DNA of 64,000 nt, taken from positions 74,524,001-74,588,000 of the forward strand of contig OZ024744.1 in the NCBI GenBank assembly GCA_964016885.1, read 5' to 3'. A model generated the notes under the pieces. The model saw only the letters and a list, made by a program, of their open reading frames with translations, made no database searches and was not told the origin of the DNA. Made by a program: the position numbers and the translations under genes. Numbering within the stretch: the stretch's first letter is position 1; every line of letters begins with the position of its first letter. Below are positions 1 through 61,840 of this stretch, piece by piece. This stretch comes from Eledone cirrhosa. Lineage: Eukaryota.

Positions 1-1619
1 AGCAACAACAACAACAATGACATTATAAAAATCCCCCTCAGTTTCGCCAGAGTAGCAAAACAGTTCGAAGCATTTACGGTAACTCAGGAGGATTTAGAAA
101 ATGCCAAACAAATGGTAAAGAAAGATGGGTACAGGGTCAGCCTCCCCCCCCCCCCCCCACCTAATAAAATGGAGCATCGGCGCCTATGCACCGTGTCGTA
201 TAGAACAATAAATGTAAAATCGCGCCGAGTGGAACGGGAATCCGAGTCCCAAATCCAAAAAGCTTTGGGACATGTGTGGGCAAGAAAAACCCACATCAGA
301 CGTGGGCAAAAGTATGGAACCGTGGGCGTATTCTTTGAAACACCAGAGGAGGCTAGAAAACACTCCATGGCCCCATTAAGAAGTGACGACTTCACACTCG
401 TCCCAAGCTATGGTGGCCAGAGACTCGTAAAGATCAGGGTGACCCACGTTCCACCGGCCATCGAAATTCCCTGGCTAATAGCGGATGTCCTCGCCGGCAA
501 CGAAGCCAACACGAAAATAATAGCAATAGCAAAAGAAAAGCAGGAGAACTGGTCCGGATCTGGGATGGAGCTCCTGATCCAAGCGGACCAAAAAAGCATT
601 GAGGAGATCCCAGAGGTAATAGACCTCACTGACGGCAGCCACCTCACAGTAATTGTCGAGGGCAGAAGACCTATGTGTGTCGTTTGTGGTGAAGGAACCC
701 ACCTAAGGGCTTTCTGCCCTCAGGCTAAAAGGTTGAGGCCACCTCTCCTACCCACCCCAGTGACACAACCATCAACACCACCAGTAGCAGAGATGGCAGC
801 AACAAATGTAGCAGCAACAACAGTAGCAACTATAACAGCAACAACCCCAGCAACAGTAGCAAAACCAACACCACCACCACCACCACCAGCAAAACCAACA
901 CCACCACCACCCAACGCTTCATAACTAGCACCAGCGCCTACACCATCCACCACGCCACAACCAAAACTAACGGCTGTGGAGGATTTTCCACTCCCCGGCC
1001 TATCACAACTGGAGACAGATTGTGACGACGAGGAGTGGGAAACGATATACGGAAAAAAAAAGAAACCAAAAAAGAAAAAAATTCTCTTCCTTCCCCCTCC
1101 AAAAACAAAATACAGAGGGAAACAAATAAATTAAGAAACAAAAAAGTTAGGACAGATATGCCACCATCCACACCAGCATCACCAACCCCATCAACCCAAA
1201 CACCAACACCATCACCATCATTAACCCCAACACCACCATCACCTACACCACAAAAGTCACCAAAATGCGAAACAGAAACAAACCCACAACAAACGCAAAC
1301 AAAACAAAACAACCAAAACGATACACACTACACAGCATTAAATTTGAACAACAAGCAATTATTACACTACATCCAACACAACACCAGCATCACAGAAAAA
1401 GACTACACAACAACCCCAAAATTCACACCACCTCCACAGATACAAATCACTCGCATCACATAGAAAACGTACATGACACTAAAACAAAAATTCCCCAAAG
1501 ACATCGGAGACTTCCGACAAGCACTCTCCAGGAGGATTTATAAGGACATCCTTCCTGAGAAGGCCACAAGCAGTGAAAAGGATGGAAAAACCGTCTTTCC
1601 CCTACGAGAAGTAAGGTAA
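1..1619 (+). pseudogene. Tx1 ORF1 (variant type), broken by stops/frameshifts
   Basis: ORF fragments 112-924, 1035-1463 align by eye to the ORF1 of other copies (CTVSYRT, VKSRRVERE, HLRAFC, HYIQHNT) but are clearly diverged. Confidence 0.8.
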
Positions 1620-1653
1620 GTGGTCTTTCCCATCTTTTCCACTCCTTTTCAAC

Positions 1654-4600
1654 ATGACCTCACTCAGAATAGGCAGCATAAATGCGCGTGGCTTGGGGTC
1701 GTCATGGAAGCAGGGCCACCTGCTCAACGACGTCAGGTCACTAAACATAGATGTAGTGGCCATCAGCGAGACCAGAATCTCCGAAGCACAGGCTTTCGCA
1801 CCGATCTTTGGCGGCTACGATGTGTACGCATCTCCCAGCCGTCCGGGATCGGGGGAGGAGTTGCTGTGCTTTTTCGGAGAGGTTTGGATCTTGCCATACG
1901 GGCCATCTTCCTGGACCCAGAAGGTAAGTTGGTGGTGCTGGACGTGACCAGCGGAGACGGGCAAGCTTTCAGGTTAGTGGCCGTCTATGCCCCGACAGGA
2001 GCAGGGCGGCCTGATTTCTTCCGGCGTCTGGAGACCTTTCTTGGAACGTCCCGCTCTTTAATGTTAGTGGGCGACTGGAACGGGATCTTAGATGCACGCT
2101 GGGATTGTGTGGGATTAGTGGATAGGGAAGGAGGGTGCAAGAGTCTCACCAACCCGCTCAGACATTTTGAACTGTCTGACAGGTACCGAATGGATTTCCC
2201 GAATGTACCAATGTTGACTTGGACAAATCGTATAGGGTCATCCAGATCATATCTAGATAGAGTATTTTGTAGGGAAATAGATAGGTCTAGCATAGGCTGT
2301 CCACAATTCAAGATAGTCAGCTACACGGACCACAAATTCGTGATCTGTGTGCTTGACTTAGATAGGCTTCATAGACGAGGACCCGGCTACTGGAAGCTAA
2401 ACGCGTCCTTACCAGCGCGCAAGGCCTACAGAGACCGGATTAGCGAACTAGTTAAGCGGGCGTTGACGGGGGCCATCGTCAACAACAAGTGGTGGTTTGC
2501 TCTGAAAAGAGCAATTAGAATAGAGTCCATTAGGTTTAGTAAGACTTTAGCAATAGAGAAAAATAGAGCAGAGGGAGAATTAGTTAGAAAATTAGATGAG
2601 GCGCTTAGCAAAGGCATCGCGACCGACGTACTTGCGGCGAAATTGGCCCTTGACCAATTCTTCAATGCAAAGCACGAAGGCTGCGTTGTCAGAGCTAGGG
2701 TGCGTGCTCTCAGACACGAGGGGACGAAAGCCGTTCAATGGGCCCGAGTGGCGGAGGCGCGTCGTGGCAACAAAGCCAGGATCCGGTCTTTGGTGGACCA
2801 CGACGGGCGCATGCTACTCGATCCCGGGCAAATGTGTGAAGCTTTTCAGCGACACTTCGCTCAACTGTTCGGGGGCAGTGGCGGGCCGGATCGAGGGATG
2901 GACTTTAGTGTCTACCTCGACGGACTGCCGCGGCTTTCGGCCACTGAGGCGGAGTGTTGCGAAAAGCCGATAACAACCGCTGAAGTACGGGATGCAATGA
3001 CTAGTTGCACAAGGGGCAAATCGCCTGGTTTGGATGGTCTGCCCTATGAACTTTACGTACAAATGCCAAACTTGTTCGGAGGCCTCTTGGCGGACGTCTA
3101 CTGCAACTGGCAACAGAACGGGAGAATTCCCAGCTCTGTGAGCCGAGGAGCGGTGGCGCTGCTGAGAAAGGATCCGAACAAGGGGGATAACATAGATAAT
3201 TTTAGGCCCATAACTCTGCTAAACACAGAGTTCAAGATTTTGGCCAAGGTGCTAGCAAAGAGGTTGGCGCTTGTCGTTGGTGGTCTGGTGGGAGAGGCAC
3301 AGACATGCGCCATTCCCGACAGATCCATCCACGACAACCTCCACCTCATGCGATACATCGTAGAGAGGGTAGCTAAGGAACCTGGCACGGGTGGGTCTTT
3401 GATCAATTTAGATCAGTCGAAAGCCTTCGATAGGGTCGACCATCGTTACCTAGCGGCAGTCCTGAAGGCGGCTGGCTTTGGGCCCGTCTACAGAGGCTGG
3501 ATCGCTGCCATGCACAGCGACATCTGCTCTGTAGTGAGAGTGAACGGTCACCTTTCGGAACCGTTCAACATCATGCGCTCGGTTCGCCAAGGATGTCCCC
3601 TCTCGTCCCTATTGTACGTATTGACTCTCGAGCCATTACTGCACAAACTGGAGACGTTGAGGGGGGTCCCGCGCGAACTAGGATGCGGAAGATCCGTGTC
3701 AGCATATGCCGACGATGTCACCGTAGTGGTGTCGAGCACCAAACACATCGAGGCGATCGGCACTACACTAAGAGAATACTAAGCGGTGACAGGAGCAATG
3801 ATCAACCAGGAAAAGTCAGTGGGCCTGCAGCTCGGTACCTGCAGAGGCAGGTCCATGCCGTCCAACAGCGTCGTCGGGCGCTGGACGGACGGACCGGTTA
3901 AATTGTTAGGGGTCTGGTTCGGTCCAGACCTCCAGACGGACAAAAACTGGGACGAGGTGACGAGCAGGGTGGCTTCTCTCACCCAGAAATGGGCCGAGAG
4001 GAAGCTATCCCTGAAAGGTCGAGCGGAGGTGGCGAATGCGTACATCGCATCCGTCATCTACTACCGCCTGACCGTCGTACCTTGTCCTAAGCCCCGCCTG
4101 ACTGCGCTGGAGCGTTTGCTCTTTCGCTTCTTGTGGAAGGGACGCGCTCCGATGGTCAGGCGGTCCATCTGCTGTCAACACCCGCTACGTGGAGGGCTGG
4201 GCATGCCGTGGCTGATGATGCGCAGACACGCGCTCAGGCTACGACATCTCCACCTCTTCCTCGACGGTGATCAGGTGTGGTCGCCGTTTGCAAGACACGT
4301 TTTTCCCCAGCTCGTCTCCTTGACGGAGCTGCAGTCCTGGGTCAAGCGAAGACCGAGAGGCAGCGCTTGGAGACTGGAATGTCTTCAGGCGCTCACAGCC
4401 CTCGACCAATCGGGCAATGTGATCGGTGGAAACTCCACCTTGGCGTTCTATAGGGGATTAGTGGAGGGGAAGAGCGACGACGTACTTGGAGAAACTCTAG
4501 GCGTCGACGAAAATCAACTAGCCAATCTCTTCGGAAGGACTTTCGGGCTGGGGCCTATGGACAACTTCCAGAAATCCCTGGCCTGGCAGTGCTACCGAGG

Positions 4601-61013: not shown

Positions 61014-61334
61014 ATTAAAGGTGGAAAACTGGGAGAGGGCACTTGCCTTGGTGGTCAGGGTCATTGTGGCTTTTTACTGGGCTTTCTCCACAAATGTCCC
61101 TCCGAAGTCTCCCCCCTATTGGGGAATTTTTCATTGTTATTTTCATTGTTATTTTTGTTACATCCTCTGTTTTTGTTTTTTTTACACGCAGAAATGCCCA
61201 TTTGTACCGTCCTGCATTGTCCTGCACTGTCCTTAATGTCTACTTTATGTAAACCCTTGTGGTTAATAAAGAAATCATTATTATTATTATTATTATTATT
61301 ATTATTATTATTATTATTATTATTATTATTATTA

Positions 61335-61840
61335 GAGGGCGGTGGATTGGCAGTATCGGTGGACGGTCTGATGCCATGCTTTGCAGCAAAGGGTTACGGC
61401 CCTTTATGGTTTGAGTTCAAATGCCGCCGAGGTTAAATTTTGCCTTTCATCCTTACGGGGTCGATAAAATAATGCACCAGTAACGTAGTGGGGTAAATTT
61501 AATCGAATTTCCCTTCCGCCAAAATTGCTGGCCTTGTGCCTATAGTAGAAATCATTATTATTAGAGCGGTGGATTGGCAGTATTGGTGGAGCGTCGGACA
61601 ACATGCTTTATGGCATGGAGTTTCGGCCCTTAATTTTCTGAGTTCGAATCATGCCGAAGTTAGCTTTGCCTTTAATCCTTTGTATCTAAAGTAGAAACAA
61701 TTATTATTATTACGTCCCTTTACAATCTGAGTTCAAATCCCGCCGAGTTTAACTTTGCTTTCATCCTTACGGGGTCGATAAAATAAAGTACCAGTAATGC
61801 ATTGGGATAATTGCTGGTCTTGTGCCAAAAGTAGAAACAA
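61335..61840 (+). mobile_element. Tandem array of three tRNA-derived SINE copies separated by (ATT)n
   Basis: A-box TGGCAGTATCGG, B-box GAGTTCAAAT, 3' CCTTGTGCC..AGTAGAAA(T)C-(ATT)n; units ~61335-61553, 61564-61699, 61712-61840. Confidence 0.85.

Follow-up and report, generated by a model that had tools for sequence, protein, structure and literature searches.

Polarity-locked mixed arrays of Tx1-like and Dong-like retroelements on (ATT)n microsatellites in a large animal genome

The 64-kb window analysed here, i.e. the whole stretch from position 74,524,001 to 74,588,000 of contig OZ024744.1 (Eledone cirrhosa; 3.0-Gb genome, 1,796 contigs), contains two arrays of retroelements joined by (ATT)n microsatellite tracts. 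Long interspersed elements (LINEs) of two kinds are interleaved in them: Tx1-like elements with an apurinic/apyrimidinic-type endonuclease (APE) and Dong-like elements with a restriction-like endonuclease (RLE). They are referred to as Tx1A-D and Dong-A/B, working family names coined in this analysis. Why do two kinds of elements occupy one repeat, each in a single orientation and opposite to the other? The original prediction, made from the window, held that they share the (ATT)n target with opposite polarity and that each insertion regenerates it. Genome-wide counts of heads, flanks and junctions agreed with the shared target and the fixed opposite polarity, and the arrays were confirmed as a real, large-scale feature of the whole genome. 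Opposite productive first nicks, together with renewal of the target by each insertion, probably explain these polarity-locked mixed arrays. The system also has members beyond the two kinds first recognized, namely a short interspersed element (SINE) and sister families on (ATCT)n. The SINE and the general repeat content seem to resemble those of octopods.

Orientation and target of the array members

The 5'-truncated copies provide a non-circular test of polarity because their 5' flank must come from the target. Excluding hits below 84% identity and ends near locus edges, 62 of 81 truncated Dong copies were preceded by AAT, 1 by ATT and 18 by neither; for truncated Tx1 copies, 17 of 33 were preceded by ATT, 1 by AAT and 15 by neither. 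The background is 0.5% for each (a 9-bp ATT run in 104 of 20,000 random 36-mers). Intact heads were also counted throughout the genome. Exact Tx1A heads lay directly after ATTATTATT, in phase, in 2,291 of 2,369 matches (96.7%). The predicted ATT 5' flank was thus found at most full-length Tx1A heads and was missing, as an ATT run, from 15 of the 33 truncated Tx1. Dong-A heads numbered 1,141. AATAATAAT was matched within 4 nt of them at most 825 times, a figure that includes some double counts, and by hand it was counted at 68 of the first 100 heads. In fetched examples, extra A runs or short head repeats separated the tract from the Dong-A head, and an AAT run of at least 6 units was present near the 5' end of all 22 fetched full-length Dong-A. 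The 5' tracts of Tx1A have a median of 10 units and seldom fewer than 6, and those of Dong-A are longer than its 3' tracts (18 vs 8).

Clustering was examined on an unselected positional list from the first 53.65 Mb of C1, with 100 Tx1 ends and 87 of 100 listed Dong ends. A Dong 3' end occurred within 15 kb of 43 of the 100 Tx1 3' ends, when uniform placement predicts 4.7, which bears out the co-clustering that had been proposed. Pairs within this distance, which are mutually non-independent, were oppositely oriented for Tx1-Dong (62 opposite, 3 same) and equally oriented for Tx1-Tx1 (38 same, 2 opposite) and Dong-Dong (45 same, 1 opposite). The same rule was found at 294 unique tract junctions (588 sides) collected from all fetched DNA: Tx1-Dong, 91 opposite and 2 same; Tx1-Tx1, 50 same and 0 opposite; Dong-Dong, 75 same and 3 opposite; SINE-Tx1, 21 same and 2 opposite; SINE-Dong, 25 opposite and 1 same. 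By side, Dong showed 272 AAT and 3 ATT, Tx1 213 ATT and 3 AAT, and the SINE 91 and 6.

The exact 3'-end patterns were counted 7,161 times in the genome for Tx1A/D, 7,602 times for Dong-A (31-mers) and 79,822 times for one SINE variant, which is a lower bound for the SINE; reversed control patterns gave 0. Among 40 random 10-kb blocks, Tx1 was present in 6, Dong in 6 and both in 5, and 22 of the 34 tracts of at least 5 units touched a member. Coverage in these blocks was 4.1% for Tx1-ATT, 6.4% for Dong and 1.6% for the SINE, summing to 12% (bootstrap 95% interval 4-21%).

The layout of the window was established by self-alignment and tblastn. Its features are as follows (ORF, open reading frame; UTR, untranslated region; RT, reverse transcriptase):

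1..5315, +, Tx1D, Tx1-like LINE with another 5' UTR and ORF1 and the same ORF2; starts some 600 bp ahead of position 1, where it follows an (ATT)n tract
5316..5345, +, (ATT)10 junction tract
5346..11356, +, Tx1A, full-length; ORF2 (7492-11106) intact, with APE, RT and zf-RVT
11357..11418, +, imperfect (ATT)n tract, tail-to-tail between the 3' ends of Tx1A and Dong-A
11419..12883, -, Dong-A, 5'-truncated, older (87%)
12884..12901, +, (ATT)6 tract
12903..14309, -, Dong-B, 5'-truncated; second RLE family, about 40-50% protein identity with Dong-A
14310..14336, +, (ATT)5 and imperfect units
14337..16612, -, Dong-A, 5'-truncated
16613..16641, +, (ATT)n tract, head-to-head between Dong-A and Tx1A
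16642..22051, +, Tx1A, older, with internal deletions
22061..23726, +, Tx1B, 5'-truncated, preceded by (ATT)3 at 22052
23727..23777, +, (ATT)17 tract
23781..28380, +, Tx1C, degraded, lacking its 3' end, followed by (CTT)33 in place of an ATT tail
32569..32885, -, two tandem SINEs, ATT polarity on the minus strand
45071..45213, +, SINE, 5'-truncated; its (ATT)12 tail (45214-45249) served array 2 as entry site
45250..51267, +, Tx1A, full-length, frameshift in ORF2
51268..51295, +, (ATT)5 and imperfect tail templated by Dong-A
51296..55209, -, Dong-A, ORF intact (51369-54794, stop to stop), 5' UTR truncated
55210..55247, +, (ATT)12 tract, head-to-head
55248..61276, +, Tx1A, young, full-length; ORF1 with zinc knuckle, ORF2 (57426-61013) intact
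61277..61333, +, (ATT)19 tract
61334..61839, +, three tandem SINEs with ATT spacers and a Tx1-like 3' end
62999..64000, +, (TATC)n tract, then a 5'-truncated sister Tx1 with (ATCT)n at both ends, extending past the window

Array 1 (1-28380) thus reads Tx1D+, Tx1A+, Dong-A-, Dong-B-, Dong-A-, Tx1A+, Tx1B+, Tx1C+ and array 2 (45071-61839) SINE+, Tx1A+, Dong-A-, Tx1A+ and three SINE+. The copies in the arrays show 83-100% identity and mix five subfamilies. All eleven junctions listed beforehand proved to be (ATT)n tracts at the expected coordinates, the seven Tx1 copies lie on the plus strand and the four Dong-type copies on the minus strand, and no element is nested in the body of another within the window. 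ATT tails, expected on all seven Tx1, were found on six; the fifth copy (23781-28380), which has lost about 750 bp of its 3' end, is followed by (CTT)33. The end initially set at 61840 takes in the SINE copies, which belong to the same system. The longest Dong-A copy lacks about 920 bp of 5' UTR, full length being about 4.85 kb. Apparent Dong-in-Dong pairs were considered as single interrupted copies, a reading rejected since every member has a 3' end to itself.

(CTT)n tracts, one base off (ATT)n, are sometimes found beside Tx1 (window 28380-28478, loci L018/L300 and L178, C1:36.92 Mb), and one Tx1 copy ends with a lone ATT followed by (CTT)26. Inverted 5' segments resembling twin priming were seen in Dong and Tx1 copies at L047, L105 and L277 (C1:34.557 Mb).

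The LINE proteins and the SINE

The APE and RLE architectures originally proposed were corroborated by domain matches and by alignments with L1 ORF2p and R2. Tx1A ORF2 matches Pfam Exo_endo_phos, RVT_1 and zf-RVT, i.e. an APE, an RT and a C-terminal zinc finger; among solved structures L1 ORF2p comes closest to it (E 2e-51), and the APE catalytic motifs align. With the APE at the N-terminus and an ORF1 upstream, this is the organization of APE-type elements of the L1 group. The ORF1 CCHC knuckle CFRCGSKTHLRAFC was found in 43 of 48 Tx1A copies and single variants in the other five; the young copy at 55248-61276 has S where 47 of the 48 have C. These elements are putatively assigned to the Tx1 clade from likeness of motifs and because L1-Tx1 elements have been reported from cephalopods. 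For Tx1 elements, target preference has been defined as more than 20% of one flank type (PMC4494074, in the part available), a threshold that the 96.7% of Tx1A heads exceeds. A single-sequence fold of the APE domain had a predicted local distance difference test score (pLDDT) of 38 and was left unused.

Dong-A has a single ORF with RT, CCHC, RHD and a PD-D-K restriction-like endonuclease and no APE, as in RLE-type elements. A 92-sequence profile aligned with R2 through RT, CCHC and RLE (E 5e-62), and R2 was also the top match of the predicted structure (mean pLDDT 89; E 4e-37). The model confidently shows a unit of three helices (residues 58-109), and the N-terminus is free of zinc fingers. 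R4/Dong elements carry a Myb-like (Myb/SANT) domain at the N-terminus according to the available part of PMC7998251; sequence searches with Dong-A returned no Myb match. The (TAA)n target characteristic of Dong/R4 was found on both flanks, and the placement in this clade is likewise putative.

The main ORF is intact in 28 of 48 Tx1A and 18 of 22 Dong-A fetched full-length copies, which are mostly best hits and so biased to youth. Dispersed Tx1A copies differ by a median of 44 positions over about 6,000 sites and Dong-A copies by 6 over 3,669; given this low divergence, both were recently active. Tx1D (1-1570) and Tx1A (5346-7600) have ORF2 in common (95%) and differ in 5' UTR and ORF1 (about 41-47% protein identity); 5'-region swaps of this sort are known from L1 lineages. 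The 5' UTR of Dong-B is 76% identical to that of Dong-A although their RTs are about 48% identical, and young Dong-A copies have or lack an internal 5' UTR duplication of about 320 bp (L042 vs window 51296-55209). Metagenomic relatives of Tx1 ORF2 were distant (mostly 22-33% identity) and ATT flanks were found at none of 17 inspected among 64 loci, a result silent on close relatives. Both LINEs were covered, mostly at 90-99% identity, in all four runs labelled as other organisms, with junctions skipped as repeats. No claim of horizontal transfer or host range is made, since runs of this kind may stem from diet or from the environment or carry a wrong label.

The SINE has a Tx1-like 3' end, target duplications and the target and polarity of Tx1, the features expected of a Tx1-mobilised element. 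Its last 30 nt resemble those of Tx1A/B (p=0.0005 for two of three SINE copies, 0.001-0.10 for the third) and not the Dong ends (p 0.3-0.96). At unselected loci, a 6-bp ATT run was found just upstream of 28 of 41 SINE heads and an AAT run of none, with a chance level of 2.7%. Duplications of at least 11 bp flanked 41 of 66 full copies, compared to 4.3 in shuffles; the 28 informative ones measure 11-22 bp and nearly all begin with ATTAT. Among the 19 anchored duplications, 18 have C or T before ATTAT, at a position outside the primer pairing, and none has A there. These duplications start at Y/ATTAT (the slash marking the boundary), so that under target-primed reverse transcription (TPRT) the first nick would fall on the AAT strand at ATAAT/R. 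Because the SINE often inserts at a lone ATTAT within unique DNA, the target requirement is a short motif, of which long tracts simply offer many copies. At L223-L224 (C1:2.80 Mb) a SINE fragment with ATT polarity occupies an ATTAT run inside the 5' UTR of a Dong-B; elements are therefore nested in bodies that contain the motif. On the window contig, some 450 bp ahead of position 1 (L211), the Tx1D 5' UTR has a short stretch like the SINE 3' end followed by an ATT run. Rfam gave no tRNA match for the SINE, only low-complexity miRNA noise around it, and motifs like A and B boxes in its head were seen by eye only.

How the arrays may be built

According to the preferred mechanism, the Tx1 endonuclease would nick the AAT strand at 5'-ATAAT/R. 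Human L1 likewise nicks at a pyrimidine-purine step. The freed end would pair with the terminal AUU(AU) of Tx1 RNA, and a second cut about 15-20 bp further on would yield the duplication. The Dong protein would make its first nick on the ATT strand, giving insertion in the reverse orientation, and the SINE would borrow the Tx1 machinery. Each insertion would split one tract into two, and the Tx1 and SINE ends would recreate C/ATTAT, so that arrays would attract further insertions of all members. Tx1 ends indeed read GAAA(T/A)C and then ATT, recreating the motif, and several carry one ATT only before other sequence. The proposed regeneration of the target by each insertion hence stands in an amended form: it seems to proceed mainly by target duplication, tract splitting and the element's own end, not by a long templated tail.

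Neighbouring Tx1A copies are often nearest relatives (6-12 differences vs a median of 44). In three of nine adjacent pairs, on C3, C28 and C4, the 5' ends are identical over 2.4, 2.9 and 5.0 kb, beyond the first 260 nt used for selection; none of 918 dispersed pairs has such 5' identity (longest 1.4 kb), and no long shared 3' run was found in the nine pairs (longest 538 bp). The 3' differences are not just later mutations because their alleles are common in other copies on both sides. At two of the three loci a 54-bp tract with imperfect units has been duplicated as far as the first base of the next copy, and this marked tract is present three times in one array. This suggests that truncated Tx1 inserts are completed by copying a neighbour: in these few cases, truncated cDNA primed left of a tract would pair with the resident copy downstream and copy its 5' part and the upstream tract, yielding a full-length mosaic. 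The upstream copy is the apparent mosaic in two of the three pairs, as this model predicts, whereas the third pair suggests the reverse. Alternatively, these loci may reflect duplication and later conversion, or smoothing by the assembly. If true, mosaic rescue of truncated inserts would be a direct selective benefit of self-targeting. The copies of a Dong-A tandem array are too alike (median 6 differences) to reveal mosaics. Segmental duplicates of array pieces with identical flanks were seen at L316-L318, L093/L116 and L039/L040, and three Tx1 3' ends occur at 395-bp spacing at C1:45.777 Mb.

From TPRT, nicking of complementary strands follows only for the productive first nick, and pairing of the RNA tail with the primer could set polarity instead, either strand being cut and only tail-complementary ends being productive. 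The invariant ATTAT of the SINE duplications is exactly the stretch that would pair with the RNA end, and the ATT and ATCT sisters have one 3' motif while tail and target change together. Polarity set by pairing nevertheless seems unlikely, as the base just before the duplication, which cannot pair with the RNA, is a pyrimidine in 18 of 19, some Tx1 ends carry a lone ATT unit, and endonuclease swaps between SART1 and TRAS1 shifted the target (PMC7265360, in the part available). Slightly less likely still is that arrays grow mostly at the level of DNA, through unequal exchange at ATT microhomology, through tandem or segmental duplication and through gene conversion, with targeted insertion only seeding them, although this is partly compatible with opposite first nicks and target renewal. 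The close kinship of neighbours, the tripled 54-bp tract and loci that are segmental duplicates (three copies, 2-5 differences, same flanks) speak for such events; the mixture of identities and of five subfamilies in the window arrays does not, nor does long shared identity that is 5' in all three cases and never 3', nor the number of mixed Tx1-Dong junctions, which outnumber every other class (93 of 294). Finally, broad insertion into AT-rich DNA, with tracts growing later from tails and clusters persisting under weak selection, would agree with SINEs at single ATTAT motifs in unique DNA and with the tracts often missing at older truncated Tx1. It is highly improbable and already largely refuted by the in-phase 5' tracts of Tx1A heads, by truncated Dong copies with tracts on their 5' side and by the locked orientation of neighbours, since selection could not fix strand.

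Several observations weigh against opposite first nicks with target renewal. Of the truncated copies, 15 of 33 for Tx1 and 18 of 81 for Dong lack a tract at the 5' flank (4 of the 18 being chaining artefacts). Tx1A 5' tracts pile up at 6-12 units, and the RNA might supply the 5' tract of full-length copies. On the 3' side, the polarity is in part a circular argument, the tail being the element's own. In pure tracts, LINE target duplications showed no excess over shuffles (unique events, 26 of 74 and 26 of 107; shuffled rows, 31-36 of 97 and 19-31 of 113). Readable cases were a duplication of 15-16 bp beginning with ATT at one truncated Tx1 and one of 45 bp at a Dong. The SINE partner test compared Tx1 and Dong ends, and another LINE family may be the partner. 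The mosaics come from three loci and are absent in six of nine adjacent pairs, with the mosaic member clear in two. The polarity rule is broken at 12 of 588 junction sides, several of which look like 5' inversions or mixed tracts; the outcomes named beforehand as contrary to the prediction were therefore not seen in bulk. Opposite first nicks with target renewal remain the favoured explanation. A wider picture is more doubtful and is offered tentatively: an APE LINE, two RLE LINEs and a dominant SINE may form a polarity-locked, niche-breeding community cutting opposite strands of one five-base motif, multiplying its target with each insertion, filling about a tenth of the genome and using its arrays as templates for the repair of truncated Tx1.

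Sister families and known systems

Sister Tx1 families with 63-78% DNA identity occur on either side of the window and elsewhere (window 62999-64000; 74503.5-74515.4 kb and 74587-74597.4 kb of the window contig; L270). They have the 3' motif in common with Tx1, carry (ATCT)n at both ends and form head-to-tail arrays of their own; their 5' flanks are ATCT in 6 of 8 and ATT in 0 of 8. Target choice is therefore family-specific within one lineage. Their endonuclease pieces are 45-64% identical to that of Tx1A, and every copy seen is broken. No opposite-strand partner was found beside (ATCT)n at 19 tracts, too few to exclude one. The ATT and ATCT sister endonucleases, with about 60% identity, would make a natural pair for mapping a target switch.

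Each ingredient of the system has a precedent. The (TAA)n target of Dong is reported from most insects, mollusks and cnidarians, a snail included (PMC7998251, PMC3812793, as far as their available text goes). Dong-A resembles Bombyx mori Dong, DongAg, the snail DongBg and an ostracod Dong in its single RT and RLE ORF and its target, and its N-terminal helical unit stands where a Myb/SANT-like domain was reported for Dong/R4 (PMC7998251, in part). Unlike known Dong, it is present with a second family in thousands of copies interleaved with an opposite-strand APE element. Microsatellite-specific Tx1 families include Kibi on (TC)n, Koshi on (TTC)n and crocodilian families on (TTCC)n/(TTTC)n, which likewise have two ORFs, an APE-RT-zinc finger order and the microsatellite on both flanks; the available part of PMC4494074 names neither (ATT)n nor (ATCT)n, and the families described there differ from the present ones, which live in an invertebrate-type host and share their target with an RLE element. 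Convergence of APE and RLE elements on one site is already known from Keno (Tx1, APE) and Utopia (RLE), which evolved the same U2 snRNA gene target in parallel (PMC4640811, in part). Their 3' flank, and hence their orientation, is the same, and they reside in a gene. The present elements instead occupy a dispersed microsatellite on opposite strands and multiply it themselves. Opposite orientations within one repeat are known for TRAS1 and SART1 in (TTAGG)n, with a short recognition of 10-12 bp (PMC7265360, in part). Both are APE elements and telomeric, in contrast with the interstitial APE and RLE elements and the SINE described here. A SINE on a Tx1 target, with weaker specificity, has its parallel in SINEU and Tx1-Mar of crocodilians, where tandem SINEU copies sandwich the target duplication (PMC4494074, in part). 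Their target is Mariner and not a short ATT motif, and the present SINE has at least 79,822 exact 3' ends. Chimeric L1 copies reportedly form by pairing of nascent cDNA with a resident L1, as described by Gilbert and colleagues. Those chimeras and the proposed Tx1A mosaics have alike a 3' part from the incoming RNA, a 5' part from the resident and a local duplication; here the event would recur because the target adjoins an identical copy.

The combination, with the ATT and ATCT targets of Tx1, the SINE link and the polar mosaics, appears to be new. A literature search found no Tx1 on (ATT)n and no opposite-strand Tx1-Dong arrays, which, with Repbase, Dfam and subscription journals outside the search, argues only weakly for absence. 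Dong-R4 and L1-Tx1 have expanded in coleoids (PMC8967140, in part), and active Dong-R4 and L1-Tx1 with hotspots were described without naming targets (PMC13282606); in what is available of both surveys the hotspots of cephalopod repeats are left unexplained. Through the present system, the repeat hotspots and the highly abundant SINE of a large animal genome can be read in mechanistic terms. Its young, intact, high-copy families make testable whether endonuclease or RNA tail sets strand and target, how the Tx1 endonuclease switched between ATT and ATCT, and whether truncated inserts are rescued by stacking beside a twin. Their aim at non-coding microsatellites also makes such elements interesting as insertion tools.

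In the spacer between the two arrays (28700-44900), repeats of (AT)n, (CT)n, (CA)n and TCTT abound, and the long 'ORFs' are low-complexity frames. A broken, weak RT-like match at 38825-39189 is unconnected to the arrays.

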